A stretch of 40,516 nt of DNA from Minisyncoccota bacterium (GCA_035546615.1 DASZWM010000001.1:1-40516), one strand, 5' to 3'; positions 8,266 through 37,136 are shown, counted from the stretch's first letter. Program-made: numbers and translations. The notes: generated by a model from the sequence alone, not told the origin.

Positions 8266-9423
8266 TTAGAGGGCGTCTTCCGCGTCGTTCGCGTAGTCCT
8301 CCGCGTCCTGCGCATAGTCTATCGCGTCGTCATACTCCTCGTCATCGTACGAGTCCTCCGCGTCGTCGAGCTTGTCATACGCCTTGTCGAGCAGGTCGTT
8401 CGCTTCGTCTATATCGTCATTGTTATCCGCATCATCTATCGCGTCCTCCGCGTCATAAATAGCGTCCTTGGCGTCGTTGATGGCGTTCTTCGCGTCGGTC
8501 TTGTCGCCTGAGGAGGACGAGCTGCTGTCGAGCAGGTCAAGCGCGTCGTTGATGAGCGCGAGCGCCTTCTTGGCGTCCGCCTTGGCGCCGTCGTAGTCCT
8601 TGTCATCAAGCGCGTCGTACGCGTCGTCGATATAGTCCTCCGCGTCGTCGAGCTTGTCGCCGGCCTTGTTCGCGTTCTTGCTGGTCGAGTCGTCCACGGT
8701 ATCGCGCGCGTCGTCGAGCTTGTCGTTCACGTCGTCGACGTAGTCCTCCGCCTTGTCGTCATCCGTCTTGCCTCCCGCGTCCTCAAAGGCGTCCACCGCG
8801 TTGTCGTACGCGTTGTCCGCCGACTCCTTCGCGTCGTCAAAGTTATTGCGGAAGTACGAATCTATCGCGTCGAACAGGTCGTCGTTGGCGTCGCCGATCT
8901 CGCGGTCCGCATAGCCGGTGTCCTTGCCGTCGTCCTTCGCGTCATCTATCTGGTCCCGCGCGTCCTTTATCTGCTCTATCGCCTTTTTAATCGAGCTCTG
9001 CGCGTTAAGGGCGGCGGAACTGGTTGTGGGCGGCGGGTTCGGTATGACGACCGGCGGGTTCACTACCGGCGGAGGTACGGAAGAAACGGTCGTGAGATAC
9101 ACGTACTTGGCGCGCGATACCGCTCCGAAGTAGCCGGTCGCCGGATTTACGCCGTTGGCGGCCTGCCACGCCATGACGGCCGTCTGGGTGAGGCCCTTGA
9201 ACTCGGTCGTCTCGTGGCCCGGCGAACCCACGCCCGAAGCCGAGACGATGAATCCCGCGCCGTTGAGGTATTGCTGGAGGCAGCGCACATCCTCCCCCAC
9301 TGTGCCGACGGTCAGGTCGCGCGTGAAGCTGCAGAGTACAGCCGCCTGCGCATTGGTCGGGGCGAACGCCGCCAGGGCGGCGAAAGAAAGGACTGCACCG
9401 AGCATGAGCGAATATGATTTCAT
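8266..9423 (-). CDS. Secreted protein: peptidoglycan-binding domain (PG_binding_1-like), Pro-rich linker, then about 250 aa of Asp/Ala/Lys-rich low-complexity repeats
   Basis: Signal peptide ...AQA; CLQQYLNGAGF...GYFGAVSRAKY resembles PG_binding_1; C-terminus dominated by recurring DDA(K/E/R)D and (Y/I)DDA units. Confidence 0.7.
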   Translation of the reverse strand: MKSYSLMLGAVLSFAALAAFAPTNAQAAVLCSFTRDLTVGTVGEDVRCLQQYLNGAGFIVSASGVGSPGHETTEFKGLTQTAVMAWQAANGVNPATGYFGAVSRAKYVYLTTVSSVPPPVVNPPVVIPNPPPTTSSAALNAQSSIKKAIEQIKDARDQIDDAKDDGKDTGYADREIGDANDDLFDAIDSYFRNNFDDAKESADNAYDNAVDAFEDAGGKTDDDKAEDYVDDVNDKLDDARDTVDDSTSKNANKAGDKLDDAEDYIDDAYDALDDKDYDGAKADAKKALALINDALDLLDSSSSSSGDKTDAKNAINDAKDAIYDAEDAIDDADNNDDIDEANDLLDKAYDKLDDAEDSYDDEEYDDAIDYAQDAEDYANDAEDAL

Positions 9424-9557: not shown

Positions 9558-10469
9558 ATGGCTCAGAGCGAACTTAGCAAGCTTAAGACCGAATTCCTCG
9601 AGTATTTGGAGATAGAAAAAGGCCGCTCGGTGAAGACGGTCGAGAACTACGACCGCTATCTCAACCGCTTTCTCGCTTTTTCGAAGGTTTCCTCACCTTC
9701 CGGCATTACCGAGCGGGGCGTGCGCGAATTCCGCCTCCACCTCAACCGGCAGGACGGCACGTCGGGCACCATGAAGCACAAGACCCAGAACTACTACATG
9801 ATCAGTCTGCGCGCGTTCCTCAAGTTCCTGCGCAAGCGCGACATCGAGTCGCTCAATCCGGAAAAGATAGAGCTTGCCAAGGTGGGCGCCCGCGACCTCG
9901 ATCTCATCTCAAGCGACGAGCTCAACCGCCTCATCCAGGGCCCGAAGGGAGATTCTCTGACCGCCTTGCGCGACCGCGCCATCATGGAGCTCTTCTTTTC
10001 GACCGGCCTGCGCGTATCGGAGCTGGTCGGCCTCAATCGCGACCTTGACCTCTCGCGCGACGAGTTCTCCGTGCGCGGCAAGGGCGAGAAGGTCCGCGTG
10101 GTATTCCTCTCGCCCGCCGCGAAGAGGGCCATCAAGGCGTATCTGGACAAGCGCGGCGACATAGACGACGCGCTCTTCGTGCAGATGGGCAAAGCCTCAA
10201 AGAACGCCAAGCAGCTGCGCCTCACTCCCCGCTCTATAGAGCGCATGATAAAGCAGTACGCCACGAAGGCCGGCATTACGCGCAAAGTGACGCCGCACGT
10301 CATCCGCCACTCCTTTGCCACCGACCTGCTTGAGAGCGGCGCCGACATCCGTTCGGTGCAGGCATTGCTCGGCCACGCCAATATCGCGACGACGCAGGTC
10401 TACACGCACATTACCGACAAGCACCTGCGCGAGATACACAAAAAGTTCCACGGCCAGCGCAGGAAATAA
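9558..10469 (+). CDS. Tyrosine recombinase, XerC/XerD type
   Basis: C-terminal RHSFATDLLESGADIRSVQALLGHANIATTQVYTH catalytic region (R..HxxR..Y). Confidence 0.85.
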   Translation: MAQSELSKLKTEFLEYLEIEKGRSVKTVENYDRYLNRFLAFSKVSSPSGITERGVREFRLHLNRQDGTSGTMKHKTQNYYMISLRAFLKFLRKRDIESLNPEKIELAKVGARDLDLISSDELNRLIQGPKGDSLTALRDRAIMELFFSTGLRVSELVGLNRDLDLSRDEFSVRGKGEKVRVVFLSPAAKRAIKAYLDKRGDIDDALFVQMGKASKNAKQLRLTPRSIERMIKQYATKAGITRKVTPHVIRHSFATDLLESGADIRSVQALLGHANIATTQVYTHITDKHLREIHKKFHGQRRK

Positions 10470-13730: not shown

Positions 13731-13803
13731 GCCCTCGTGGCTCAATGGATAGAGCGCCTGGCTTCGAACCAGGAGGTTCCAGGTTCAAGTCCTGGCGAGG
13801 GCA
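13731..13803 (+). tRNA. tRNA-Arg (anticodon TCG)
   Basis: Manual cloverleaf: acceptor GCCCTCG/CGAGGGC, anticodon arm CCTGG-CTTCGAA-CCAGG, T arm CCAGG-TTCAAGT-CCTGG. Confidence 0.8.
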
Positions 13804-13850
13804 CAAACTTGGAGTTTAAAAATTGGTGCGCTACTATAGTGTGTGTACAA

Positions 13851-13921
13851 GCGGTCATTGTTTAATGGTAGGACGCGTCCTTGCCAAGGACGAGGTGGGA
13901 GTTCGATTCTCCCTGACCGCA
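13851..13921 (+). tRNA. tRNA-Gly (anticodon GCC)
   Basis: Acceptor GCGGTCA/TGACCGC, anticodon arm CGTCC-TTGCCAA-GGACG, T arm GGGAG-TTCGATT-CTCCC. Confidence 0.8.
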
Positions 13922-14137
13922 CAGGATTTACGTTGTTCTAAAAGGAGAAGTTGGTCCGTTTTGAGGTAAAAGACAGGGTGTGGCCGTTTGGGGATATTGA
14001 AATGGCTTAAAATAAGGCTTTTTCAATAAGACCTGTGGATAAGACTGTGGAAATGTGCATAAAGGACGTCCTTTTTACCCTTTGCGGAAGTCTGATTTCC
14101 AAAAAACCAGCAAAATAGGGCTTAAAATGAGCTTTTT

Positions 14138-14155
14138 ACGTTTCATATGAAACGT
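14138..14155. promoter_or_regulatory. 18-bp perfect palindrome ACGTTTCATATGAAACGT, about 40 bp upstream of yraN
   Basis: Seen directly; lies in the AT-rich tRNA-Gly/yraN intergenic region; candidate operator. Confidence 0.35.
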
Positions 14156-14193
14156 TACACGTGAACCCTCGTCAGGATTCTGATGCATTAAAT

Positions 14194-14589
14194 ATGGCTA
14201 AAACTCACAAAAGAGCTATAGGAGATGCCGGCGAAGGTGTTGTTTGCCGGTATTTAGAAGGAAAAGGCTATCGGATTGTTGGTAGGAATTACTGGAAACC
14301 GTGGGGAGAGATAGACATCGTCGCTGAAAAAGGCGATTTGACCATATTTATAGAGGTTAAAACCGTTTCACGTGAAATGGACGGGGAGGGGATTTCACGC
14401 GAAACCTTCAGACCGGAGGAGAATATGCATCCGGATAAGGTAAAAAGGCTGCACCGGACTATACAAACCTACCTTTTAGAGAAAAAAGTCCCTGAAGCAA
14501 GGCCGTGGCGGCTAGACCTTGCCTGCGCCTATTTGGACTTTAAAACCCTTCAGGCGCGTGTTGAAATGTTGGAGAATGTGGTGTTGTAG
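14194..14589 (+). CDS. yraN: YraN/UPF0102-family endonuclease-like protein
   Basis: GEGVVCRYLEGKGYRIVGRNYWKPWGEIDIVAEKGDLTIFIEVKT matches the UPF0102 core; visibly lower GC than surrounding genes. Confidence 0.7.
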   Translation: MAKTHKRAIGDAGEGVVCRYLEGKGYRIVGRNYWKPWGEIDIVAEKGDLTIFIEVKTVSREMDGEGISRETFRPEENMHPDKVKRLHRTIQTYLLEKKVPEARPWRLDLACAYLDFKTLQARVEMLENVVL

Positions 14590-14658
14590 TGCTATCCTCA
14601 AATAATCCAGGCGAGGCAACGCACCGGTAGTACGATTGCGTGGGGTCAAATGCTGTGT

Positions 14659-14729
14659 CGGGGCGTCGTATATCGGTAGTACGCTTGCTTTGGGAGCAAG
14701 ATGGCCCAGTTCGATTCTGGGCGCCCCGA
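14659..14729 (+). tRNA. tRNA-Pro (anticodon TGG)
   Basis: Acceptor CGGGGCG/CGCCCCG, anticodon arm CTTGC-TTTGGGA-GCAAG, T arm CCCAG-TTCGATT-CTGGG; flanks extend the acceptor stem (CTGTGT/ACACAG). Confidence 0.8.
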
Positions 14730-14757
14730 CACAGTATTTGACCGTTAAAGACTTACA

Positions 14758-15630
14758 ATGGAACGCATACTTCTTACTACAAAGCCGCAAAAGGACTACG
14801 AGCTGCTCGACTCCGGCGGGGAAGAGAAGCTTGAACGGTACGGAAATGTCCTTTTGAGCCGGCCCGACCCGCAGGCGCTATGGCCCAAGCAGCTTCCTGA
14901 AGGGGAGTGGACGAAGGCGAATGCCCGCTATATCCGGGAAGGGAATACCGGCAAGTGGGTAGGGGAGTTGCCCAAAGAATGGCCTATAGAGCTCGGAAAT
15001 CTCAAATTCCTCATACGCCCGACGCCATTCAAACACACCGGCCTTTTTCCCGAGCAGATTTGCAATTGGGAGTGGGCAGGCGAGCTGATACGGGGCGCAG
15101 GAAGGCCTGTGTCGGCGTTAAACCTCTTTGGGTATACAGGAGGCGCTTCCCTTGCCGCGGCGGCCGCAGGCGCATCTGTAGTGCACGTAGACGCGTCTAA
15201 AACGGCCGTAGCGTGGGCGCGTGAGAATGCGGAACTCTCGGGCCTGGCTGACAAGCCTATACGATGGATAACGGAAGACGTGAAACTGTTCGTGGAGCGC
15301 GAGCTGAAGCGGGGGAATCGCTATGATCTGATATTGATGGACCCGCCCGCCTTCGGCCATGGGCCAAAAGACGAGTTGTGGAAGATTGAGGAGGACCTGC
15401 TGCCGCTTATAGAGGCTTGCACGCGGCTGTTGTCCGAAACGCCCGTAGGCATGCTGGTAAACGGCTATGCTGCCGGGTATTCGCCGCTGGCATTCGCGTA
15501 TAATCTGGAGCCTCTCGCGCAAAAAATGGGCGGCGCAACAGAATACGGCGACCTTACGATAGAAGAAAAGGGGAGCGGGCGGCTCCTACCGTGCGGCATT
15601 TTCGCGCGCTGGCGCGCAAAAAACCTTTAG
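14758..15630 (+). CDS. Class I SAM-dependent RNA methyltransferase, RlmI/RlmK-like
   Basis: LFGYTGGASL SAM-binding motif I and ILMDPPAFG motif IV; overall arrangement like 23S rRNA m5C methyltransferases. Confidence 0.65.
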   Translation: MERILLTTKPQKDYELLDSGGEEKLERYGNVLLSRPDPQALWPKQLPEGEWTKANARYIREGNTGKWVGELPKEWPIELGNLKFLIRPTPFKHTGLFPEQICNWEWAGELIRGAGRPVSALNLFGYTGGASLAAAAAGASVVHVDASKTAVAWARENAELSGLADKPIRWITEDVKLFVERELKRGNRYDLILMDPPAFGHGPKDELWKIEEDLLPLIEACTRLLSETPVGMLVNGYAAGYSPLAFAYNLEPLAQKMGGATEYGDLTIEEKGSGRLLPCGIFARWRAKNL

Positions 15631-16764
15631 TTACTGGGCTTTCAGGGCTTTTATAAGCGCTGCGCGCTCTTGCGCCGCCGCAGACGATTCAAAGTCTTTG
15701 GCTTCCTGCACGACATCTTTCGAAAGCAGCCCTTCGATACCGCCCTTGTCGTAGCTGAGAAGGCTGCGATTGATATGCGCGAGCGTTACGGCCCTGAGGT
15801 CGCGGCCTTCGGTCGTACCGGCGGTCGTGCTTGTCGTAATGATGCCCTGCAGGCGCCCGTCCTGCGTCCGAACCGCCGCTCCGCCTGAAGAGCCGCCTTG
15901 CGATACGACCGTGCCGCCTATCGAGACCAGGTCTACAGTGCGCTTCGTGAACGTGAAAAGTTCCTTAACCGCGGCGAAGGCCGAAGAAGGGTAAAGGTTC
16001 TGCCGGATGGACGTGCCGTCCAGGAAGCCGGCGGGATAGGCGGCCAAGAACATGTTCTGCCCGACCTTGGGCGCGTCTATGGTCATCGAAAGGGCAGGGA
16101 AGGAGGCGGGAAGCGAATCTTTCGCGCTGACCGTATCCGTCACGATAAGGAAAGCGTAATCGTTCTCGCCCGTGCCGCGGGCGTCCGTGAGCGTTATCTG
16201 CGGCGCATGGTCTTCTATCCAGGCGGGCGGCAAGTATAGGAGCCTGGCTTTGTATGCGGCAGCGGCGGGGCTTCCGGTGCGGAGCGTGCAGTCGACGTCG
16301 CCGCGGGTAGGGTAGTCGGAGAGCAGGAACATCTGCCCGACGTGGGCATTGGTAAGCACTATGCCGCGAGAGTCTACGAACACGCCGCTTCCGGATATGG
16401 GATGCACTTTATTGGTTTTTGTGAGGCACAGGATATTTACAAGCGCGGCGCGGGTTTTGTCGTTGAGCACGTCGGCGGAGAGTTCCGCGGCCGGCGGCTG
16501 CGCGGGAGTCGTTGATGCAGCCAGCGGTTTCGGCGCATTGGCGGAAACAGGAGCGGAAACAGGAATATATTCCTCCTGTTCGATCGGTATATCGTTCGGC
16601 ACAACCTGGAAGCGGGGCGGGGGAGGGGATACCGCGCCCGTTACGGGCGCGACCGATACGACCGTGTCGCTCGGAATGTAGGTATCCACGACGTTGCCGA
16701 CGAACATGGTCAGCGCTGCCCCCATGGCCACGAACGCCGACAGTAGCGTCGAGATTATTTCCAT
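15631..16764 (-). CDS. Membrane-anchored trypsin-like (S1) serine protease
   Basis: N-terminal TM helix; catalytic triad contexts TNAHV (His), DYAFL (Asp), GGSSGGA (Ser). Confidence 0.7.
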   Translation of the reverse strand: MEIISTLLSAFVAMGAALTMFVGNVVDTYIPSDTVVSVAPVTGAVSPPPPRFQVVPNDIPIEQEEYIPVSAPVSANAPKPLAASTTPAQPPAAELSADVLNDKTRAALVNILCLTKTNKVHPISGSGVFVDSRGIVLTNAHVGQMFLLSDYPTRGDVDCTLRTGSPAAAAYKARLLYLPPAWIEDHAPQITLTDARGTGENDYAFLIVTDTVSAKDSLPASFPALSMTIDAPKVGQNMFLAAYPAGFLDGTSIRQNLYPSSAFAAVKELFTFTKRTVDLVSIGGTVVSQGGSSGGAAVRTQDGRLQGIITTSTTAGTTEGRDLRAVTLAHINRSLLSYDKGGIEGLLSKDVVQEAKDFESSAAAQERAALIKALKAQ

Positions 16765-16830
16765 AGTAAATATAGTATACGCTCCAATAAGAATGCGCGA
16801 TTCATTAGCGGCGCAGTTGCGATGCGAAAT

Positions 16831-16904
16831 GCGGGATTAGTTTAGTGGTAAAACGACAGTTTTCCAAACTGTAGTTGGGAGTTCGATTCTCCCATCCCGC
16901 ACCA
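16831..16904 (+). tRNA. tRNA-Gly (anticodon TCC) with encoded CCA
   Basis: Acceptor GCGGGAT/ATCCCGC, anticodon arm ACAGT-TTTCCAA-ACTGT, T arm GGGAG-TTCGATT-CTCCC, 3' ACCA. Confidence 0.8.
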
Positions 16905-26311: not shown

Positions 26312-27976
26312 ATGCACGTCGATAGTGGGGCACTGCGGGATTTTTTGATTTCAAACGGGCTTGTTACCCGCGCGCAATTGGCTGATGTTCTTTCCGCAGG
26401 ACAGGGAGAGGCCCTGTACGACACGCTTGCCGCGCGGGGCGTGGTCTCGCAGGACGAATTGCGCCGCGCGGCGGCGCATGTTGCAGGCGTTTCTTTCGTA
26501 TCGCTCTCGCCGCACGACATAGCCCTGGAGACCTTGAGCCTCATTCCCGAGCCGCTATCGCGCGTTCACAATGTCGTGGCTTTCAGGCAGGAGGGAAATG
26601 TCGTCGAGGTGGCGATGCTCGATCTCGGTTCGCTTGAGCATCTCGCTTTCCTGCGCGACCAGAAAGGCTTTACGGTTCTGCCGCGCCTCACTACTTCGGA
26701 TTCGATAAAACAAACGCTTCGGGCGTACCAGCAGCGCTTAAAGGAGAATTTCAAGGCGCTCCTCCAGAACAGCGCCCATGCGGTCGATGCGCTTATCCGC
26801 CACGCGCTTCTTTCAAACGCCGGGAGCGTTCATCTTGATCTGCATCAGACGGGATTACTCGTGCGCTACCGCATACAGGGCATGCTCCACGAAGCGATGC
26901 TTTTGCCGAAGGAAGCCGCGCATATCTTCGAGCGCATCAAGGAGGCGGCGAATCTCTCGCTTACGCTCCACGTGCCGCAGGAAGGAAGTTTCAAGACGGA
27001 GCTCAGCGGCGGGGAATCGGTCAGCGTGCGGGTCGCTGTGTCGCCGACTCTTTCCGGCGACCGAATGACGCTGCACTTGGCGCCCGAGCGCTCCCGCCGG
27101 CAGGGCTTTGCCCTTGAGTCGCTCGGCCTGCACGGCCGCGCGCTTGAGGATGCGCACGCGCTGCTCCGGACGCGCGACGGGCTTATAATCGTTGCCGGTC
27201 CTCTTAACGCAGGCAAGACAACGACCCTCTATACGCTGCTCGATATCCTGAGCGAGCGCGGCGTATCCGTTGCCACGGTGGAAGAGAATATAGAGTACGC
27301 GCTGCCGCATGTTGCCCAGACGCAAGTGCGCTCCGAACTCGGGCTCACTTCGGCCGCCGCTTTGCGCGCGGTCCTTCGGCAGGATCCGGATATCGTGATG
27401 CTGGGCGACGTTGCCGACGAGCAGACTGCCGCTTTAGCTGCGCAGGCGGCTTCGCGCGGGGTGCTGGTCTTGATGGGTATTGAAGCGTCCTCGGCTGCCG
27501 CGGCGGTAGGGAAGCTGCGCGACTGGAGGATCCCGTCCTCGCTCGTCGCTTCTGTACTTAAGGGCGCCATAGGCGTGCAGGTCGTGCAGAAACTTTGCAC
27601 GAAAGAACGCGAAGAGTACCGGCTCGCGCGGATCGAGAGCGCGCCGCTCGAGCCCAAGGCGAACTTCGGCCGCGTGCTTGCGGCGCTCAAGGAAGAGGGG
27701 ATAGTGGGGAAGGATATGCAGTGGAAGGAGCTTCTTTTCGCGCGCGCTTCCTCCTGCGAGGAGTGCGCCGGAGGATATCAGGGCAAGATCGGGCTCCAGG
27801 AAGTGCTTCCAGTCACTGCTCCTATAAAGGATGCATTAAAGGAAGGCGCGGGAGCAGAAAGAGTAGAGGAAATAGCGCGAGAGGACGGCATGCTCACCAT
27901 AGCCGAAGACGGATTATTTAAAGCCGCGCAAGGCACTACGAGCGTCGAGGAAGTAGTGCGGGTAGTTCAAGCGTAG
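26312..27976 (+). CDS. Type II secretion / type IV pilus assembly ATPase (GspE/PilB family) with a T2SSE_N-like N-domain; catalytic motifs appear degenerate
   Basis: Walker A GPLNAGKTTTLY; RQDPDIVMLGDVAD in the Walker B region; C-terminal CEECAGGYQGKIGLQEV finger; His-box position reads LMGIEAS. Confidence 0.8.
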   Translation: MHVDSGALRDFLISNGLVTRAQLADVLSAGQGEALYDTLAARGVVSQDELRRAAAHVAGVSFVSLSPHDIALETLSLIPEPLSRVHNVVAFRQEGNVVEVAMLDLGSLEHLAFLRDQKGFTVLPRLTTSDSIKQTLRAYQQRLKENFKALLQNSAHAVDALIRHALLSNAGSVHLDLHQTGLLVRYRIQGMLHEAMLLPKEAAHIFERIKEAANLSLTLHVPQEGSFKTELSGGESVSVRVAVSPTLSGDRMTLHLAPERSRRQGFALESLGLHGRALEDAHALLRTRDGLIIVAGPLNAGKTTTLYTLLDILSERGVSVATVEENIEYALPHVAQTQVRSELGLTSAAALRAVLRQDPDIVMLGDVADEQTAALAAQAASRGVLVLMGIEASSAAAAVGKLRDWRIPSSLVASVLKGAIGVQVVQKLCTKEREEYRLARIESAPLEPKANFGRVLAALKEEGIVGKDMQWKELLFARASSCEECAGGYQGKIGLQEVLPVTAPIKDALKEGAGAERVEEIAREDGMLTIAEDGLFKAAQGTTSVEEVVRVVQA

Positions 27977-28176: not shown

Positions 28177-28935
28177 ATGGCTAAAAAGCGCCTTGTCGCC
28201 GGAAACTGGAAAATGTATATGGCCGATGCCGCCGAGGCCCGCAAGTTCGCGGTGGGTCTCCGCCGCCGCACCCGCGGCTTCTCGGGGGTAGAGGTATTCC
28301 TTGCCCCGCCCCTTCCTTTTATAGCCGATATCGCGAAAGCGCTTGAAAGCTCGCCAATTGAGGTGGGCGCTCAGATTATATCCGCGCATGAGGACGCGCC
28401 GCATACCGGCGAAGTATCGGGCCGTATGCTCAAGGGTGCGGGCGCTTCTTTCGTCATCGTCGGCCATTCGGAGCGCCGCGCTTCCGGCGAGACGAACGAC
28501 GTGGTGCGCGCAAGCCTCGAGCGCGCGGTGGAGGCGGGCCTTACGCCGGTCCTGTGCGTCGGGGAGCGCGAGCGCGAGGCCGACGGCGAACACTTTGCTT
28601 TTATCGAAGCCCAGCTTTCGTCCGCTTTGAACAATTTTCCGAAGAACCTCCTCAAAAAGCTTGTCGTGGCCTACGAGCCGGTGTGGGCGATAGGGAAGTC
28701 GTCCGTCGGCGCGATGAAGGCGCCCGAGCTTGAGGAAATGGTCATATTCGTGCGCAAGACGCTTACGGATCTGCTTGACCGCAAGGCCGCGCTCAATATC
28801 CGCGTGCTGTACGGGGGTTCGGTCGAGCCCGGCAACGCGTCGGAGCTTCTCGCGGCCGGCGTCAACGGGTTCTTGGTGGGCCATGCGAGCGCGGATCTGA
28901 ATTCGTTCGTGCAGATCATACAGGCATGCAAGTAA
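28177..28935 (+). CDS. tpiA: Triosephosphate isomerase (start at MAKKRLVAGNWKMY)
   Basis: AGNWKM, VIVGHSERR and YGGS TIM signatures. Confidence 0.9.
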   Translation: MAKKRLVAGNWKMYMADAAEARKFAVGLRRRTRGFSGVEVFLAPPLPFIADIAKALESSPIEVGAQIISAHEDAPHTGEVSGRMLKGAGASFVIVGHSERRASGETNDVVRASLERAVEAGLTPVLCVGEREREADGEHFAFIEAQLSSALNNFPKNLLKKLVVAYEPVWAIGKSSVGAMKAPELEEMVIFVRKTLTDLLDRKAALNIRVLYGGSVEPGNASELLAAGVNGFLVGHASADLNSFVQIIQACK

Positions 28936-29894
28936 CTTCAATACGAGACGCGGATGTTTCCGGCAAACGCGTACTGGTGCGCGTTGATTTCAATGTGCCG
29001 ATGAAAGACGGACAGGTCGTAGACGACGCTCGTATCAAGGCGGCGCTGCCCACTATTGGTTTTTTGCACGAGCGCGGCGCCGCGCAGATAATCCTGCTCG
29101 CGCATCTTGGCCGGCCGGATGGGAAAGTGGTGGAAGACCTGCGTCTGGCGCCGATTGAGGCGCGCGCGAGGGCGCTCATAAACGCGCCGTTTGAGATGCA
29201 TGAGAACCTGCGCTTTGATGCCCGTGAGGAGGCCAATGACGAAGGGTTCGCGAAGGAGCTTGCCGGCCTCGGCGACATATTCGTGAACGAGGCGTTCGCC
29301 GATTCCCACCGCGCGCACGCTTCCATTGTCGGGATTCCGAAGTTCCTGCCCAGCTATGCCGGGCTCAGGTTCGAGGAGGAAGTGACAAAGCTTTCCGCCG
29401 CGCTTACGCCGCCACCGGGCGCCGTCGCCATTATCGGCGGGGCAAAAATAGAGACGAAGGCGCCGCTTATCGAGAAATTCGCCGCCACCTACAGCCTCAT
29501 ATTGGTGGGAGGCGCCATCGCTAACGAGTACACCGCAAAGACCAATAACGTGATGTTGCCGCAGGACGGCGTCAGCGACGCAACACATGTGGCCGATATC
29601 GGCCCCGAGACCGCCCGCGCGTGGACCGAAATCATCGCGCAGGCGCCGTTTGTCGTATGGAACGGCACTATGGGTATGTACGAGCAGTCCGCGTTCATCG
29701 GAGGCACGGACGCCATAGCCAAGGCTATTATCGGCAGCCGCGCCGTCGCCATCATCGGGGGCGGCGACACCGCGGCGGCGGTCGCGAAGTTCGCATTCGA
29801 TCCCGCGCGCATTTTCATCTCAACCGGCGGGGGAGCGATGCTCGAATTTTTGATACAAGGCACATTGCCCGGCATTGAGGCGCTCAAGCGGTAG
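28926..29894 (+). CDS. pgk: Phosphoglycerate kinase (short form, 322 aa)
   Basis: VRVDFNVP, HLGRP, GGGD/GGGA motifs; overlaps the tpiA stop by 10 nt. Confidence 0.85.
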   Translation: MQVTSIRDADVSGKRVLVRVDFNVPMKDGQVVDDARIKAALPTIGFLHERGAAQIILLAHLGRPDGKVVEDLRLAPIEARARALINAPFEMHENLRFDAREEANDEGFAKELAGLGDIFVNEAFADSHRAHASIVGIPKFLPSYAGLRFEEEVTKLSAALTPPPGAVAIIGGAKIETKAPLIEKFAATYSLILVGGAIANEYTAKTNNVMLPQDGVSDATHVADIGPETARAWTEIIAQAPFVVWNGTMGMYEQSAFIGGTDAIAKAIIGSRAVAIIGGGDTAAAVAKFAFDPARIFISTGGGAMLEFLIQGTLPGIEALKR

Positions 29895-29985
29895 AAGATT
29901 TCGTTGTCCACAGGTTGTGGCATCCGCGATTCTGTTTATAGTGTGAAAGGGAACGTGGGGCATTGAAACGACAAGGCTTTTAGTG

Positions 29986-30162
29986 ATGCGGGACTCCGTT
30001 CAGCAGCAAGAAGAACCGACTTCAATTTTCAACAAGCGTACTTTGTTCGTCGCCGCGTTCATCGCGGCGCTATTCTCGCTTTTCCTGCTTCCGCGGGAGA
30101 CGCTGAAGGGGTGGGTAACCCCATCCGCAGATCATTCTATGACAGCGAAGGCGCTGCCATAG
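29986..30162 (+). CDS. Possible small membrane protein, 58 aa (MRDSVQQQEEPTSIFNKRTLFVAAFIAALFSLFLLP...)
   Basis: Unlisted short ORF with one TM helix, immediately followed by a strong terminator. Confidence 0.3.
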   Translation: MRDSVQQQEEPTSIFNKRTLFVAAFIAALFSLFLLPRETLKGWVTPSADHSMTAKALP

Positions 30163-30171
30163 CCAGACGAA

Positions 30172-30198
30172 GGCCCGCCGGATGGCGGGCCTTTTTGC
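30172..30198 (+). terminator. Rho-independent terminator (GGCCCGCC-GGAT-GGCGGGCC + TTTTT)
   Basis: Perfect 8-bp GC stem plus T5. Confidence 0.7.
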
Positions 30199-30225
30199 TG
30201 TAAGGCGCGTTATACTATAAGGAGT

Positions 30226-30576
30226 ATGCCGCCGGAATCGCAACCGCAACCGCAGCAGCCCCGCATTCTTTTTCCGAAAGCGCATCTTTTTGTCGCGCTT
30301 GCGGCCGGCGCCTTGTGCGTCGCGGGCGGCACGGCGGCCCTTTTCTTTTCCCGCTCGCCGGACGTTTCTCCTGCGGCGCAGGCTCCAGAGCCTCCGGCAT
30401 ACGACAGCCGCTCTCTTACCGCCGAGGAAAAATTGAAACTCATCTCGGAGCATCCCGCCCCTCCGGGCCTTTCCGCCGAGGAGAAGGAAGCCGCGTACGA
30501 ACACAGCGGTGCAACAGCTCCGGAAGGCCTTACGTCGCAGGAAAAGCAGCGCATGGCCGAAGAAGCGCAGAACTGA
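30226..30576 (+). CDS. Small membrane-anchored protein with three (L)(T/S)AEEK-type repeats
   Basis: AAGGAG SD; TM helix LFVALAAGALCVAGGTAALFF; repeats LTAEEKLKLI / LSAEEKEAAY / LTSQEKQRMA. Confidence 0.55.
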   Translation: MPPESQPQPQQPRILFPKAHLFVALAAGALCVAGGTAALFFSRSPDVSPAAQAPEPPAYDSRSLTAEEKLKLISEHPAPPGLSAEEKEAAYEHSGATAPEGLTSQEKQRMAEEAQN

Positions 30577-30582
30577 TCACGC

Positions 30583-31533
30583 ATGAAACCTGCTACGACT
30601 TTAAAACGGCATATGCGAACTGCGCTTGCATGGATGGTCGCGCTCGCGGCTGGCATAGCGGTGCTCGCGACGCTTTCTCGTGTCATGCCGGCGCCCCCCC
30701 TTTACGCGCAGGTGCCCGCCGCCAACGGAGGCGTCCTTGCGCACGCCGCATGGAGCTCGAATATTGGCTGGGTAGAGTTTTCGGGAACAGGCTGGGGCGT
30801 GTATCTTTCGCCAAGCGACGGCACTTCGCTCCTCGGCTACGCCTGGAGCTCGAACGTGGGATGGATACAGTTCGGCGCGACATCGTGCGGCGCGGCGCCA
30901 AGCATAAGCGGCACCAAGCCCACCGTATCGCTCACGGGCTGGGCCAAGGCGCTCGCCACGGGCGGCGGCTGGAATGGCTGCATCAAACTTTCTAATACCG
31001 GCTCGCCGTCATATGGCGTCGCCGTCTCCTCGTATTCGCAGGCCAGTCAAGGGGGCTTGCTTCAAGGCTACGCGTGGGGGAGCGATGTGGTCGGCTGGCT
31101 TCGGTTCGATCCGGCGCCCGGCGGCGTGTATCTCAAGTTTACCTCCTGCAACAACGGCCTCGACGATGACCATGACGGCCTCGCCGACGCGGCCGACTCC
31201 GACTGCCCCGACCTGACTTCAAACGGCGAAGTAGTGACGAATCCGGCCGCGACGGTCGATATCAAGGCTAACGGTAAGGACACGCTGTCGGTGCGTCAGG
31301 ACTCGAGCGTGAGCGTCACCTGGAGCACGAGCCTCGTCGGAGGCTGCACGCTGACCGACCCTTCCGGAACCAGCGCTGTTTCCGATCAGAATACCGTGGG
31401 CTCGGCCTATACTGTCTCGGCCGCGAGCGGCTTCACTCTCGCCTGCCGCGAGCTCGTGGGCGGCCTGCCTACGGGCCCCGCGCATAGCGATAGGGTCGTG
31501 GTGCACCTGCTTCCTATGTACCGCGAGATTTAG
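30583..31533 (+). CDS. Secreted/anchored protein with three WSSN(I/V)GW(I/V)xF tandem repeats, a thrombospondin-type-3-like Ca-binding motif and a C-terminal beta-rich domain
   Basis: N-terminal hydrophobic segment; repeats AWSSNIGWVEF, GYAWSSNVGWIQF, GYAWGSDVVGWLRF; DDDHDGLADAADSDCPD matches DxDxDGxxDxxDxCP. Confidence 0.65.
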   Translation: MKPATTLKRHMRTALAWMVALAAGIAVLATLSRVMPAPPLYAQVPAANGGVLAHAAWSSNIGWVEFSGTGWGVYLSPSDGTSLLGYAWSSNVGWIQFGATSCGAAPSISGTKPTVSLTGWAKALATGGGWNGCIKLSNTGSPSYGVAVSSYSQASQGGLLQGYAWGSDVVGWLRFDPAPGGVYLKFTSCNNGLDDDHDGLADAADSDCPDLTSNGEVVTNPAATVDIKANGKDTLSVRQDSSVSVTWSTSLVGGCTLTDPSGTSAVSDQNTVGSAYTVSAASGFTLACRELVGGLPTGPAHSDRVVVHLLPMYREI

Positions 31534-31548
31534 TGATAAAATAAACTC

Positions 31549-32697
31549 ATGTTCAAAAAGACGCGCGAAGAATTCCTCCGGTTTTCAAAAGCTTTCCTGC
31601 TAGCCGCTTTAGTTCTTCTGGGAAGCGCGGCGCTCGCCGATTGGACCGCGCCCGTTGCCGCGCCACCCACCTGCGCTTCCGGCAACCAGGGCTGCGACGC
31701 GCCCATCAACGTAAGCGCAACAGCACAAACCAAAACGGGCAATCTCACCATCGGCTCAGGCGGCACGAACGTGCTCATTTCCGCCACCGGTTATATCTGG
31801 CCTACTATCCTGAATGTCGGCAGCACCTATCCAACCACGCCCCCTCCCAACAGCATTTGCCTATCGGGTTCGTGCATTACCGCCTGGAGCCAAGCCGGCG
31901 GAGGCGGGACTGACTATCAGGCCTTCACTACTGCGGGTGCTGGGTCATGCCCCGGCACTGGCACTAATTGCTGGACGAAGCCAAGCGGCACCACCGCGTC
32001 ATCACGTACGCTCATAGAGTGCTGGGGAGCGGGCGGCGGAGGCAGCGCTAATGGCGGGGGTGGGGGCGGCGCATATCGCGGGCGCTGGGTCCTGACCTCA
32101 TCTCTCGGCGCGACCGAACCGGTTACTATCCCTGGCACAAGCAACACAGCAACCGCAGGAGCGGCAGCTTCTTTCGGAACCTGGGCAACAGCACCGGGGG
32201 GTGGGGCAAGCAACACGACAAGCGGCGGAGGCGGAGGCGGAGGTGGCGGGTATGATGCGGCAGGCGGCAATGCCGGCGTCGGCGGCGGGGGCTATGCCGC
32301 CAGCGGCGGTAACGGCGGCAATGCCGCGTATAGTTACGGCCTTGCAGGCCTGTGCAGCCTTTCTTCCAACGTGGCACTGCGTACCGGTACTGACGCTACC
32401 AGCGGAGGCGGAGGCGGAGGCGCGGCAGGCTGCGAGGGCGCAGACAAAGGAGGCGACTCCATTACCGGCGGCGGGGGTGGCGGCGGCAACCATGGAGACG
32501 GTAACCCGAAGAACGGCGGCAACTCAATATGGGGCGGCGGAGGAGGCTCAGCCGGGTCTTCAGGAGGAAGCGGAGGGCGCAGTATGTACGGCGGCGCGGG
32601 CGGCGCGACCGGTGTTGCGGGTACCGCGCCGGGCGGCGGCGGCGGGCGCAACGCCCAAGGAGCCCGCGGCGAATGCAGGGTTACGACGTTTAAGTAG
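31549..32697 (+). CDS. Secreted glycine-rich protein (Gly_rich / polyglycine-II-like), with an N-terminal Cys-containing domain
   Basis: Sec signal peptide ...AALA; IECWGAGGGGS, GGGGGGGGGYDAAGGNAGVGGGGY and further Gly runs; antisense frames are Pro-rich artefacts. Confidence 0.65.
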   Translation: MFKKTREEFLRFSKAFLLAALVLLGSAALADWTAPVAAPPTCASGNQGCDAPINVSATAQTKTGNLTIGSGGTNVLISATGYIWPTILNVGSTYPTTPPPNSICLSGSCITAWSQAGGGGTDYQAFTTAGAGSCPGTGTNCWTKPSGTTASSRTLIECWGAGGGGSANGGGGGGAYRGRWVLTSSLGATEPVTIPGTSNTATAGAAASFGTWATAPGGGASNTTSGGGGGGGGGYDAAGGNAGVGGGGYAASGGNGGNAAYSYGLAGLCSLSSNVALRTGTDATSGGGGGGAAGCEGADKGGDSITGGGGGGGNHGDGNPKNGGNSIWGGGGGSAGSSGGSGGRSMYGGAGGATGVAGTAPGGGGGRNAQGARGECRVTTFK

Positions 32698-32705
32698 ATT
32701 ATTTT

Positions 32706-33065
32706 TTAGAGCGCCGCGCGGATCTTCCGCGCGTTCCCTTCAAGGTCCGTTTTTTCGCCCTTCGCGTTGTTATTGGGAAATACCCAGATATGCGCGTGCT
32801 CCACTTCGTCGCCCACTGTTTTTGAAAGTATCCAGTCGGTGTCGAACGCCTGTTGCTGGGCTTTGGCTATTTTTTTCGCTACCTCAAAATATGCTCCGGC
32901 ATTCGGCACGTCCCAGACCCAGCGGTAGTGCTCTTTCGGAATTACCTGGGCATGTCCCGGCGATTGCGGGTGTATGTCGAGGAAGGCGAGGAAATGCTCG
33001 TCCTCATACACCTTCTGCGCGGGAATCTCTCCGGCTACTATTTTGCAGAAAATACAGTCAGGCAT
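32706..33065 (-). CDS. HIT-family (histidine triad) nucleotide hydrolase
   Basis: HAHIWVFP histidine-triad motif and an N-terminal CxxC. Confidence 0.85.
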   Translation of the reverse strand: MPDCIFCKIVAGEIPAQKVYEDEHFLAFLDIHPQSPGHAQVIPKEHYRWVWDVPNAGAYFEVAKKIAKAQQQAFDTDWILSKTVGDEVEHAHIWVFPNNNAKGEKTDLEGNARKIRAAL

Positions 33066-33088
33066 GCCTCTATAGTATACTTCTTCCG

Positions 33089-34768
33089 ATGAAATCCTAC
33101 CGATTGCGCGAGCGGGCGCACGATGAGCTGCTCCCGGACCTCATGCTCGCCCGCGGCGTCGTCGGCGATGAGGCGCAGAAGCAGTTCCTCGCGCCCGACT
33201 TCGAGCGCGACTCCGGCGATCCCTTTCTGCTGCCTGACATGGATAAGGCGGTCGACCGCATTCTGTCCGCGGTGAAGAATGCCGAGGCGGTGTGCGTGTG
33301 GAGCGACTACGACTGCGACGGGATTCCCGGCGGCGTCATGCTCACGGAGTTTTTGCGCTCCATCGGTTTGACCGTTCGCCACTATATTCCGCATCGCCAC
33401 ACCGAAGGGTACGGATTGAACGAAGAGGGAATAGAAGAGCTCGTACAGCAGGGCATCAAGCTCATCATCACCATTGATCTCGGCACGACCGAGATAGAAC
33501 AGATCGCGTACGCCAATTCCAAAGGCGTCGACGTCATCGTCACCGATCACCACATCGTGCAGGACGATCTTCCGGATGCGTTCGCTCTGCTCAATCCGAA
33601 GCGTCCCGACAGCGCGTACCCGTTCGACGGATTGTGCGGCGCGGGCGTTGCGTGGAAGTTGGTGCAAGCAACGCTCGCGCGTTTGCGCGCGAGCGACAAT
33701 CAAATAGACTGGCGCGGTTTTCCGGAAGGCCAGGAGAAATGGCTGCTTGACCTGGTCGGCATCGCCACGCTTTCCGACATGGTGCCGCTCGTCGGCGAGA
33801 ATCGCATGCTCGCGCATTTCGGTTTGCGCGTTCTTCGCCGCGACCGGCGCCCCGGCCTTTCCGCGCTTTTGAAATTGCTGCGCATCAAGCCGTCCACGCT
33901 TACGGAAGACGATATCGGATTCATGGTGTCTCCGCGCATCAACGCCGCCTCAAGGATGGACAAGCCCGACACCGCGGCGCGCCTGCTTGCTACGTCCAAT
34001 GCCGTGGAAGCATCCGACATCGCCTTCGAGCTCAACCGCATCAACGACGAGCGCAAGGGAGTGGTTGCCGCGATAGTGAAGGAGGCGAACAAGCGCATGG
34101 AGGATATGCCTGCCGACGGTCCCGTCATCGTCATGGGAAATCCGAAGTGGCGCCCCGGCGTGCTCGGTCTCGTCGCAAACAGCTTGATGGAAGCGCAGGG
34201 GAAGCCCGCGTTCTTGTGGGGCCGGGAAGGCGGAGAAACAATAAAGGGCTCGTGCCGCTCCGACGGTTCCGTCAGCGTCGTCGATCTCATGGCTGCGGCC
34301 GGAGACGTGTTCCTCGGGTTCGGCGGACATACCGCCTCCGGCGGATTCTCGGTCGATGCCGGGCGCGTGCACGAGCTCTTGCCGCGGCTGACGTCTGCGT
34401 ATGAAATGCTGCGCGCGAAAGCGTCTGTCGCGCAAGATGTTGTTATAGACCGGCAGGCTGACCTGTCTGAGATCTCCCACGCCCACCGCGACTTGGTAAA
34501 GCTTGCCCCGTTCGGTATCGGCAATAGCAAGCCCCTGTTCATGTTCCCCGACGTCTCAATCGGCAACACGAAGATGTTCGGCAAGACCAATAATCATCTG
34601 GATATGAGCCTGGAGAAAGGCGGCAGCCGTATCTCCGGCATCGCGTTCTTCTCCGGCCACGATTCGTTCACGAAGAAGGTGGAGAAGGGCGCCCGCGCCG
34701 ACATCGTGGGCCACATAGAGAGCGACTGGAGGGGGCAGTCGCGCATCCGGGTTGTTGATATACTCTAA
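33089..34768 (+). CDS. recJ: Single-stranded-DNA-specific exonuclease RecJ (DHH + DHHA1); start at MKSYRLRE
   Basis: DHH motifs (DYDCDG, ITDHH), DHHA1 GGGH region; the longer upstream in-frame extension is not coding. Confidence 0.9.
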   Translation: MKSYRLRERAHDELLPDLMLARGVVGDEAQKQFLAPDFERDSGDPFLLPDMDKAVDRILSAVKNAEAVCVWSDYDCDGIPGGVMLTEFLRSIGLTVRHYIPHRHTEGYGLNEEGIEELVQQGIKLIITIDLGTTEIEQIAYANSKGVDVIVTDHHIVQDDLPDAFALLNPKRPDSAYPFDGLCGAGVAWKLVQATLARLRASDNQIDWRGFPEGQEKWLLDLVGIATLSDMVPLVGENRMLAHFGLRVLRRDRRPGLSALLKLLRIKPSTLTEDDIGFMVSPRINAASRMDKPDTAARLLATSNAVEASDIAFELNRINDERKGVVAAIVKEANKRMEDMPADGPVIVMGNPKWRPGVLGLVANSLMEAQGKPAFLWGREGGETIKGSCRSDGSVSVVDLMAAAGDVFLGFGGHTASGGFSVDAGRVHELLPRLTSAYEMLRAKASVAQDVVIDRQADLSEISHAHRDLVKLAPFGIGNSKPLFMFPDVSIGNTKMFGKTNNHLDMSLEKGGSRISGIAFFSGHDSFTKKVEKGARADIVGHIESDWRGQSRIRVVDIL

Positions 34769-35210: not shown

Positions 35211-35741
35211 ATGAAAATCATAATCGGATCGGAAAGCAAAAGAAAGATAGAAGTTGCTGAACGCACCCTTAGGCAATTCTTTAAGGATGAGCTAGAAGTA
35301 CTGGGATACAAGGCTCTTTCAGGCGTTCCAGAGACCCCATACGATAAAGAGACATTTGATGGAGCCAGAAACAGAGCACTTGACGCGAAGGTTCATGCAC
35401 CGGACGCTGAACTATACGTCGGTATGGAAAGCGGCCTTATTGAACGCTACGGACATATATTTGAAGAAGCATGGAGCGTTATTCTCGCGGGCGGCAAAGA
35501 GTACTTTGGATACTCCAGCGGTCTGAAAGTCCCCGATTTTATATTGGCGAAAATGAACGCGCTCAAAATGCCGCACTCGGAAGTTATGGGGATGCTTGAA
35601 AAAGAATATGACCTGCCTCCAAGCGACACATGGAAGACCTATTCCGGAGGGACGATTTTAAGGGAAATAAGTTTAGAAGAATCGCTGCGCAATGCGCTTA
35701 TACAAGTTACGGCGCCAGAAAAAAGCTTCTATAGAAAATAG
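35211..35741 (+). CDS. Non-canonical purine NTP phosphatase, YjjX/DUF84 family (inosine/xanthosine triphosphatase-like)
   Basis: SGVPETP...GARNRA core resembles YjjX; visibly lower GC than the flanking genes. Confidence 0.6.
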   Translation: MKIIIGSESKRKIEVAERTLRQFFKDELEVLGYKALSGVPETPYDKETFDGARNRALDAKVHAPDAELYVGMESGLIERYGHIFEEAWSVILAGGKEYFGYSSGLKVPDFILAKMNALKMPHSEVMGMLEKEYDLPPSDTWKTYSGGTILREISLEESLRNALIQVTAPEKSFYRK

Positions 35742-35780: not shown

Positions 35781-37136
35781 GTGGCAAATCGTTTCATATT
35801 GGGTCTGCTTATTTTGGCCTATGTTGGCGCGCTTATCGTGCGGACAGATTTTCTTTTACGAAGCGAGGCAGGGGAGACGCTTAAGAATTACGTCGGCACT
35901 TCTGCGACTGTTGAAGGGAGGGTCGTGAACGACCCAGAACATCGCGACACGTCGCTCCACGTCAACGTCGAAGTTTCTAAAATAAATGATGAAGCTGCAA
36001 GCGGCGTATTGCTTGCGATACTGCCGCGAGAAGCGCAACTTCAGTACGGAGACAGAGTCGCGCTTAAAGGAAAAGTAACCGCGCCGGAATCTTTTGAAAC
36101 TGATACCGGGAGAATATTTGATTACGCCGGCTACCTGCGCGTGCAGGGAGTATCGGCGATGCTTAAATACGGAACGATTGAAGAAATAAATCCCGGCGGA
36201 TGGTCGCTCCAAAAAACGCTGTTCGATATCAAGCACGGGTTCGAACACTCGCTTGAGCGAATGCTGCCGGAGCCGGACAACTCGCTGCTCGAAGGGGTAC
36301 TCCTCGGCGAGCGGCGCGGATTGCCCGACAGCCTCAACCATGCGTTTATCGTCTCAAGCCTGGTGCATGTTGTCGTGCTCTCCGGCTACAACATTTCTAT
36401 CGTCGCCAATGCGATGCTGTACGCGACCAGCATTTTGCCTCGCACGCTTAGCTACGGGCTCGGCGGCGTGCTGATGGTCCTCTTCGCTATCATGACGGGC
36501 GCCGGCGCCACGACGGTACGCGCGTGCGCCATGGGTATCATCGCGATAGTGGCGCAGTATATGCGCCGCAGGGCCGTAGCTATGCGCAGCCTCATTGCGG
36601 CGGCGGGCGCCATGGCGTTGTGGAATCCGCTCATTATCCTGCACGACACTTCCTTCATATTGAGCGTGCTGGCGACCTTCGGGCTCATTACGCTGTCGCC
36701 GTGGGTGGAAACATACCTCTCTTGGATGCCGCGGTGGAAATATCTGGACGTACGCGCCATAGCCGCCTCTACCATTGCGGTGCAGATATACATATTGCCC
36801 GCGCTGCTGTACTTCATGGGCATACTTTCGTTCGTAGCGCTTCCGGCCAATATGCTGGCGCTCCCGGTCGTGCCGTTCGCGATGCTCTTAGGTTTTTTTG
36901 CAGGGGTTGTGGGGCTGATCCAGCCGGTTCTTGGGCTGCCGCTGGCATTCCTCGCGGATATTCTGTTGCGCTGGATGATGTTGGTGGCAAACACCGCCGC
37001 ATCCCTGCCGTTTTCTTCAGCCACCATAGCCGCGTTCCCTGCATGGGTCGCAGTTGCGGTCTATATTCCCCTGACGGGCTTCGCTATCTGGCTATATCGA
37101 AACGCTTCTCGAGAACAGACCAGTTCAAGTTCTTAA
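35781..37136 (+). CDS. comEC: ComEC/Rec2 DNA-uptake channel: DUF4131 OB-fold plus Competence domain, lacking the C-terminal metallo-beta-lactamase domain
   Basis: N-terminal OB-like region, then a polytopic TM region with LLGERRGLPD...FIVSSLVHVVVLSGYNIS typical of the Competence domain. Confidence 0.8.
   Translation: MANRFILGLLILAYVGALIVRTDFLLRSEAGETLKNYVGTSATVEGRVVNDPEHRDTSLHVNVEVSKINDEAASGVLLAILPREAQLQYGDRVALKGKVTAPESFETDTGRIFDYAGYLRVQGVSAMLKYGTIEEINPGGWSLQKTLFDIKHGFEHSLERMLPEPDNSLLEGVLLGERRGLPDSLNHAFIVSSLVHVVVLSGYNISIVANAMLYATSILPRTLSYGLGGVLMVLFAIMTGAGATTVRACAMGIIAIVAQYMRRRAVAMRSLIAAAGAMALWNPLIILHDTSFILSVLATFGLITLSPWVETYLSWMPRWKYLDVRAIAASTIAVQIYILPALLYFMGILSFVALPANMLALPVVPFAMLLGFFAGVVGLIQPVLGLPLAFLADILLRWMMLVANTAASLPFSSATIAAFPAWVAVAVYIPLTGFAIWLYRNASREQTSSSS

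Follow-up and report, generated by a model that had tools for sequence, protein, structure and literature searches.

We analyzed a 40,516-nucleotide (nt) stretch of DNA, referred to here as the window, from a Minisyncoccota bacterium (GCA_035546615.1 DASZWM010000001.1:1-40516). The window is an entire contig of a "Candidatus Paceibacterota" metagenome-assembled genome (MAG). Our subject is a set of three adjacent genes that we call A (30226–30576; 116 amino acids, aa), B (30583–31533; 316 aa) and C (31549–32697; 382 aa), which we find to represent three protein families that travel together through many lineages of Patescibacteria. A tiny open reading frame (ORF) precedes them (29983–30162; 59 aa from a GTG, or 58 aa from an ATG at 29986). 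All four ORFs, and all of their features described below, are on the plus strand; the intergenic gaps are 63, 6 and 15 nt. These are the positions and the order given in an initial annotation made from the sequence alone, which read the four ORFs as a compact module of secreted or surface proteins. The trio is flanked upstream by genes for a PilB-type ATPase, TIM and PGK, and downstream by genes for a HIT protein, RecJ and ComEC. In a related MAG (locus L001), B and C are only 50% and 55% identical to the window proteins, and the order PilB .. TIM, PGK, a 108-aa A-like protein, B, C, HIT, RecJ, RNase H, ComEC is kept.

The product of gene B begins with a leader (30583–30708) made up of a basic n-region, a hydrophobic stretch at aa 13–31, defined by the maximum Kyte-Doolittle window, and a possible signal-peptidase site between LYA and Q after aa 42. 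AxA-type sites lie ~10 residues ahead of the first repeat in B homologues, and with this possible cleavage site the leader may either be cleaved or act as an anchor. An AlphaFold2 model of B (predicted local distance difference test score, pLDDT, 86) has a helix at residues 6–34, an all-beta region at residues 50–186, and an immunoglobulin (Ig)-like sandwich at residues 224–309. The all-beta region (30730–31140) is a beta-hairpin repeat domain with four GYAWSxNIGWIxF-type units, each followed by a YGV strand. Three of the units read WSSNIGWVEF (residue 57), WSSNVGWIQF (residue 88) and WGSDVVGWLRF (residue 165); the fourth, a degenerate unit at residues 119–136, GWAKAL..GGGWNGCIKLS, emerges from the family alignment. 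The tandem WSSN repeats reported by the initial annotation do exist, with the corrections that there are four units, not three, and that the spacing is 31 and 77 aa, not 35–45 aa. These repeats are not a chance pattern, since the Trp and Gly columns W57, G62, W63, W88, G93, G119, W120, G171 and W172 are invariant in 77 B homologues.

The repeat domain leads into an acidic, Cys-flanked loop, CNNGLDDDHDGLADAADSDC (31147–31206, aa 189–208). This DxDxDG-type linker is poorly defined in the AlphaFold2 model, with low confidence, and it probably binds calcium. It had been annotated as a thrombospondin-type-3 (TSP3)-like motif, and the likeness is that of a DxDxDGxxDxxD pattern between two Cys. That assignment does not hold, as there is no match to Pfam TSP_3 at E ≤ 1. 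The closest curated model is NF033662 (acid_disulf_rpt), which aligns to residues 187–210 of B with 30.4 bits, under its cut-off of 41, and matches 18 of 77 B family members. We rejected the idea that B is a thrombospondin type 3 repeat protein on the grounds that it has only a single copy of the motif and no Pfam TSP_3 match. Measured against the TSP3 spacing, B has one extra residue ahead of the closing Cys.

Downstream of the acidic loop, the Ig-like beta-sandwich (31252–31509, aa 224–309) occupies the variable position of the B family. The protein then ends in a short tail, PMYREI (31513–31530), which fits a family motif, P-x-[FYW]-x-E-[IFL], and in which E315 is nearly invariant. This motif is found in 52 of 81 proteins from genome loci in a relaxed form and in 29 of 81 in a strict form, irrespective of the domains in the middle of the protein. 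To our knowledge, the hexapeptide is unlike any familiar sorting signal; it could be a docking peptide. The conserved tail was overlooked by the initial annotation, as was a genomic link to type IV pilus (T4P) genes that we describe below.

B has hundreds of relatives. Among the candidates scored, 353 proteins were significant matches, and phmmer E-values against family members range from 1e-86 to 1e-11. A scan of one genome per species yielded more than 537 B loci, 80 of which were kept for neighbourhood work. Seventy-nine of the 80 come from MAGs titled as Patescibacteria lineages, as "Saccharibacteria" or generically as "uncultured bacterium"; the named lineages are Paceibacterota, Kaiser-, Nomura-, Giovannoni-, Taylor-, Yonath-, Nealsonbacteria and similar. 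Two records stand apart. An A-B-fibre locus (L072) is on a 3.5-kb contig titled as a Hyphomicrobium sp. MAG and binned as an alphaproteobacterium, and the record for one B homologue (P0040) places it on a 2.2-Mb contig. Both records are binning errors or else rare cases outside Patescibacteria.

The family plan consists of a leader, four hairpin units, often an acidic Cys-flanked loop, at least one variable Ig-type domain, and the C-terminal motif. B has every one of these features, including the tail. The initial annotation could not name a family for the WSSNxGW repeat, and rightly so: neither Pfam nor NCBIfam has a model that covers this domain in even one of the 77 members. We also found no match to the repeat domain among sequences in the PDB, no Foldseek hit to B at E ≤ 1e-3, and no B relatives in 2.9 million viral contigs. 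By sequence comparison, B founds a large family that is new to Pfam and NCBIfam. A possible parallel is the aromatic, wall-binding hairpin repeat of the choline-binding type, CW_binding_1. The two would have in common short hairpin repeats with conserved Trp, Tyr and Gly, in proteins exported from a monoderm-type cell. However, neither CW_binding_1 nor any other Pfam repeat family has a match in B at E ≤ 1, or in the 77 members at E ≤ 0.1, and the B repeat, at ~30 aa with a hairpin and an extra strand, differs in both length and consensus. By analogy, this likeness suggests a manner in which B might be held in the wall.

Gene C encodes a Sec-type leader (31549–31638, aa 1–30) with predicted cleavage between ALA and DW, an N-terminal module (31639–31896, aa 31–116) with the layout WTAP..PP..(Cys loop)..APINVS..QTKTGNL, and a distal domain (31909–32694, aa 121–382). 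The hydrophobic leader, the Cys (10 in all) and the poly-Gly blocks that had been annotated in C were all found; there are nine runs of at least four Gly, and residues 121–382 are 35% Gly. When the genes near B homologues in the 80 loci were clustered, one group of 60 proteins was found to share a single N-terminal head with the pattern, after the leader, A↓W-T-G-P-T-x-x-P-P-x-G-N-x-x-A-P-I-N-V-G-x-x-x-Q-x-K-x-G-x-L. We refer to this group as the fibre family. C belongs with it: residues 14–82 match a hidden Markov model (HMM) of the 60 family N-termini, built without C, with 55.9 bits (E 5e-17), and W32, P35, P40, N46, P52, Q60, K62 and G64 are the conserved residues. The conserved Trp of the family is at a median position of residue 29, with Ala at –1 in 40 of 57 members and Val or Ala at –3, a pattern predicted to be a signal-peptidase I-type site. 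C represents a sub-type, also present in L042, L043 and L080, that has a small Cys loop ahead of APIN. No curated model in Pfam or NCBIfam covers the head, and the N-terminal module was not found in the 2.9 million IMG/VR viral contigs.

The distal ends of the fibre family are varied. Pfam matches in the family are to Peptidase_S74 (nine members), Collagen (six), Gly_rich_2 (three), and Fibrinogen_C, T4 gp36 and TSP1 (one each). In all, 21 of 62 aligned members end in known C-terminal parts that, TSP1 apart, are standard for trimeric fibres. Tandem arrays of three or four fibre paralogues occur in L007 (433–5221), L033 (9334–11879) and L020 (12159–15103); the leaders and heads of these paralogues are nearly identical and their distal parts are different, which suggests a diversifying tip repertoire.

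The initial annotation saw no recognizable enzymatic domains in the module. The distal domain of C can be recognized by its modelled fold, which is that of the glycine-rich receptor-binding tip of phage tail fibres: a TNF-like beta part, followed by a glycine-rich lattice of stacked motifs. The GGGGxGG-type motifs are repeated with variable segments between them, and Gly columns are invariant across 51 relatives. The sequence relatives of C are of two kinds, namely one close orthologue that matches over the full length, and many proteins that share residues ~120–382 only. Several of the latter match Pfam PF21722 (Gly_rich_2), and in many the N-terminus is a match to a solved head-binding domain of a tailspike. 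Scans of A, B and C against Pfam, NCBIfam and PHROGs gave nothing above threshold, save a weak match of C to a tail PHROG. The tip fold of C is shared with cyanophage Pam3 gp24 (PDB 7ypx) and with the "tail wing brush" of mycobacteriophage Bxb1, gp33 (PDB 9d93). In the Pam3 tail fibre, the TNF-like domain and the glycine-rich one recognize the host receptor, and it is by the N-terminal end that the fibre is docked to the baseplate (PMC9608196). In contrast to phage fibres, C has a Sec leader and a Patescibacteria-specific N-terminal module in place of the baseplate- or head-binding end, and is encoded amid cellular housekeeping genes; no gp25-like fibre chaperone was recognized. The glycine-rich domain of the ALK/LTK receptor kinases is a more distant likeness, much weaker than that of the phage proteins. 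It is a eukaryotic cytokine-binding receptor domain, with no functional parallel to C beyond ligand binding. Glycine-rich domains of the C type are present in IMG/VR viral contigs. Since the glycine-rich domain was found in these contigs and the head was not, C is a chimera in which a phage-type tip is joined to a cellular mount that is lineage-specific.

Collagen-like and other fibrous adhesins on the surface of monoderm bacteria offer a second comparison. Six fibre-family members match the models for Scl1/Scl2 and Lcl (NF038329, NF038330 and NF046116), and the fibre family would share with these adhesins Sec export and a fibrous, probably trimeric form with a variable distal binding domain. 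The adhesins are anchored through LPXTG and sortase or in other known ways, whereas A, B and C lack an LPXTG and C-terminal transmembrane signal. The conserved end of the fibre family is instead N-terminal, and the family has two dedicated partner genes. We rejected B and C as sortase substrates: B ends in ..HLLPMYREI and C in ..RVTTFK, and neither has a C-terminal hydrophobic segment.

Gene A, whose ATG is directly preceded by an AAGGAG box (30219–30224), encodes a protein with a hydrophobic segment at aa 21–39 (30286–30342) and three L[TS][AS][EQ]EK units at residues 64, 82 and 102, within a repeat region at aa 64–113 (30415–30564). This bears out the annotation of A as a membrane-anchored protein with three AEEK-type repeats. 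A single-sequence search with A against 1.84e9 representatives retrieved only A itself and one low-complexity match. Small genes adjacent to B elsewhere encode proteins with one transmembrane segment followed by two or three [ST]xxEKxxILxxLS-like units. An HMM of 28 such A-like proteins, built without A, scores A at 16.3 bits (E 6.5e-4), with the transmembrane segment and all three repeats aligned in register; this score was reached by one of 300 shuffles of the A tail. The same HMM gives 25 bits for the A-like protein of a related MAG (L002). We used the first-round model only, as more iteration drew in unrelated small transmembrane ORFs. These data support, modestly, the assignment of A to a family that accompanies B and consists of small membrane proteins with a single pass and three [ST]xxEK repeats, predicted to be helical in type; further weight comes from the location of the A gene, which directly precedes B at a distance of 6 nt. 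At the junction (30574–30585), the TGA of A is in frame with the ATG of B, with TCA CGC between them, such that read-through there would fuse A to B.

The tiny ORF is probably not part of the module, in which it had been included. Its product has one hydrophobic segment, and its G+C content at third codon positions (0.67) is gene-like. On its 3ʹ side is an intrinsic-terminator-like hairpin, GGCCCGCC-GGAT-GGCGGGCC, followed by TTTTT (30172–30196), with a folding energy of –23.8 kcal/mol (z = –4.28); none of 200 shuffles folds as well. The hairpin is absent from the list of a consensus terminator scanner, and direct folding was used instead. It divides the tpi-pgk(-tiny ORF) unit from A-B-C. We assign the tiny ORF and the terminator to the upstream unit because L001 has no equivalent of the tiny ORF, and its A-like gene starts 6 nt after PGK. 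The tiny ORF is possibly not a gene at all.

The three families recur together. We counted partners within three genes of B in the 73 loci whose ORF calls include B. An A-like gene is present in 31 of these loci, a fibre gene in 39, and both in 24. Viewed from the other side, 31 of the 42 A-like genes among ~1,150 called genes are within three genes of B. The order of the trio is shuffled (BAF, ABF, FAB, AFB and others, where F is the fibre gene), and its housekeeping flanks vary from locus to locus. Recurrence across many lineages despite shuffled order argues for functional coupling of A, B and the fibre protein. The proposal that A, B and C form a real module is thus upheld, both by the identical order between pgk and HIT/recJ in L001 and by co-recurrence across Patescibacteria; the genes are not scattered in relatives, as they would be had the initial annotation been mistaken on this point.

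T4P genes (PilB/PilT, PilC and pilins) are present in 18 of 74 loci, and are within three genes of the module in 12 of 74. In the window, a gene for a PilB-type T4P assembly ATPase (26312–27976, plus strand; T2SSE E 2e-68, with an MshEN domain) is 2.2 kb upstream of A, and L001 has the same neighbour. The most extensive example is L038 (22–12617), which reads as a complete T4P operon with PilM/N/O-like genes, PilB, a response regulator, PilT, PilC, a major pilin, PilD and four minor pilins, as judged only from N-terminal sequence and clustering; a 521-aa B-family gene separates the major pilin from PilD. The neighbourhood in L077 is similar, and there B is directly followed by three pilin genes. 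The order in L080 is pilins, A-like, fibre, B, and that in L043 is B, A-like, fibre and then directly PilB. Two other genes separate the trio from PilB in L012 and L078, the trio is within three genes of T4P genes in L061, and B is immediately upstream of PilB-PilC in L017, L019, L060 and L064. The B tail motif shows a weak negative trend with T4P loci (p = 0.03, uncorrected). The trio and type IV pili are linked genomically, through pilB, pilC, pilD and pilin genes, and each probably plays a part in host attachment. None of A, B and C is itself a pilin. All window ORFs were searched with a regular expression for a class III prepilin leader (G↓FTLIE), and none was found; the three proteins have leaders of Sec or transmembrane type, and none of them matches a T4P Pfam family.

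The surroundings of the trio have several other features. The module lies between the PilB-type ATPase gene and a RecJ .. ComEC group (33101–34768 and 35781–37136), that is, among DNA-uptake-type genes, and this arrangement is kept in L001 (2476–4155 and 10426–13858). These surroundings might be a competence or pilus neighbourhood. An NTPase gene (35211–35741) occupies the position that RNase H has in L001. An 855-aa ORF (32201–34768) with a GTG start inside C is an artefact of high G+C content; the true RecJ, with DHH, DHHA1 and RecJ_OB domains, starts near 33101. Between the ends of C and of the convergent HIT gene there are 8 nt and no hairpin. PGK is only 322 aa long in both MAGs (window 28926–29894; L001 6695–7663) and is matched by the 379-position Pfam PGK model in three separate stretches, which gives it the appearance of a shortened PGK; the last 10 nt of tpi overlap the beginning of the PGK gene. 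Elsewhere in the window are housekeeping genes for NusA, trigger factor, RNase Y, PNPase and a CCA-adding enzyme. Two minus-strand genes are further envelope candidates, namely a 452-aa ORF without a Pfam match (2043–3401) and a gene for a 385-aa protein with PG_binding_1 (peptidoglycan-binding) and DUF4398 domains (8266–9423). There is also a gene for a XerC/D-type tyrosine recombinase (9558–10469, plus strand), and tRNA genes for Arg-TCG, Gly-GCC, Pro-TGG and Gly-TCC are scattered about a trypsin-like protease gene (13731–16904).

What could be the function of the trio? An adhesion or host-interaction role, as first suggested in the initial annotation, is still the best reading. We consider it probable, on balance, that A, B and C are one copy of a cell-envelope module that is specific to Patescibacteria and builds a surface fibre for attachment to a host cell or substrate. 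All three proteins have N-terminal hydrophobic leaders, and an extracytoplasmic location of B and C fits with their paired Cys (B has six). We propose that C would be exported by Sec, with its leader cut ahead of Trp32, and would trimerize. Its conserved head would be the counterpart of the baseplate-docking end of a phage fibre, fixing the fibre to the cell via B or A. A might be a membrane anchor or an assembly factor, and B a wall-spanning or wall-binding adaptor with aromatic hairpin repeats that bind a wall polymer or a partner, and a tail that docks another component. Type IV pili would make first contact and retract, and the glycine-rich tip would bind the target surface in concert with them. 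A more speculative possibility, to which we give limited credence, is that the module represents an undescribed, Sec-dependent fibre-display system in which interchangeable phage-type ends are carried on a conserved N-terminal module and held by B and A, beside and together with the type IV pilus. The interchangeable ends would then, just as tentatively, be the glycine-rich tips, the collagen stalks and the S74-matured fibres.

Several observations weigh against a fibre-building module. Our confidence is mostly in an exported fibre or adhesin module and much less in the specific roles of A and B, which we draw solely from synteny. The statistics for membership of A in its family are modest (E 6.5e-4). 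C matches no Pfam family at E ≤ 1, including Gly_rich_2, although the missing PF21722 match is probably due to composition filtering. The N-terminal module of C has low AlphaFold2 confidence and a shallow alignment. In 22 of 73 loci, B has neither partner within the fetched flanks; the ratio of fibre genes to B varies, for example 4:1 in L007; and the B tail motif is not significantly correlated with the presence of an A or fibre gene (p = 0.16). The enrichment of A-like and fibre genes near B is an argument from counts in fetched flanks and not a calculated one, and ORF calling used a simple longest-ORF heuristic.

Alternatively, the genomic data could be explained if the trio were an accessory of the type IV pilus machine and not a separate fibre. 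B would then be a component of the pilus, at the level of the wall or associated with the tip, and the fibre proteins would be pilus-borne adhesins, or Sec-exported cargo that the pilus pushes across the wall, as in type II secretion. Type IV pili are the best-documented attachment organelles of Patescibacteria (PMC6744442; PMC11880426). This explanation would account for the PilB gene upstream of the trio in the window and in L001, for the placement of B inside a T4P operon (L038), among pilin genes (L077) or directly before PilB-PilC (four loci), for PilB following B-A-fibre in L043, for the trio near T4P genes in L012, L061 and L078, and for the 12 of 74 loci that have T4P genes within three genes of the module. 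Nonetheless, we consider it rather unlikely. T4P genes are missing within 8 kb in 56 of 74 loci, a class III prepilin leader is absent from A, B and C, and the regular-expression search found no pilin-like ORF in the window. In addition, the C-termini of the fibre family are self-standing trimeric fibre types, and PilB in the window is set apart from A by two glycolytic genes and a terminator.

It is also conceivable that A, B and C are independent secreted or surface proteins, brought together by shared regulation of envelope genes or by a compact genome. The solitary B genes, the variable gene order and the lack of association between the B tail motif and the partners are all in keeping with independence, but we think it improbable, given that most A-like genes (31 of 42) are close to B, and that fibre genes neighbour B in 39 of 73 loci from many lineages, with all three genes together in 24. 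Moreover, the flanking housekeeping genes vary between loci, and recurrence despite shuffled order is the usual signature of functional coupling. Lastly, the trio could be a decayed prophage tail-fibre cassette consisting of a fibre gene and assembly or accessory genes. The distal domain of C is of phage tail-fibre type, with a weak match to a tail PHROG, the closest relatives of C outside the candidate phyla radiation (CPR) have tailspike head-binding N-termini, and the S74 chaperone domain, which is typical of phage fibres, forms the end of other fibre-family members. Our data largely refute this idea, which we regard as very improbable: phage fibres have no Sec-type leader, and A, B and C each have one; tpi, pgk, HIT and recJ flank the trio, in an order conserved in a distant relative; Pfam assigned none of the larger window ORFs scanned to a phage structural protein; 2.9 million viral contigs yielded neither B nor the N-terminal module of the fibres; and the trio is spread over many Patescibacteria lineages. 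We rejected C as a virion part on the same grounds, its N-terminus being a Sec leader and a cellular module that was not found in viral contigs, amid housekeeping flanks.

A surface fibre or adhesin is known as a general kind; the parts and their arrangement described here were not known before. Pfam (2025 copy) and NCBIfam (June 2026) have no entry for the B repeat domain, the fibre head or the A repeats, and we found none of these families described in the literature, which we searched for the motif strings and for surface fibres of Patescibacteria. Domain databases could now receive three definitions, one each for the repeat domain of B, the N-terminal module of the fibres and the repeats of A. 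According to Méheust et al., the majority of families enriched in the CPR are membrane or secreted proteins that lack annotation and probably have to do with pili and contact between cells (PMC6744442). The A, B and fibre-head families fit this description and give it content. Beyond type IV pili, little is known of how the ultra-small, host-dependent Patescibacteria recognize and hold their hosts. Here, three families have been defined that travel together, the variable member of which bears a receptor-binding end of the kind with which phages choose their hosts. Hence, the trio provides testable candidate determinants of host range. If the proposed fibre-display system is real, it would be a cellular counterpart of a phage tail-fibre set, and a determinant of the choice of hosts to which these episymbionts can attach.

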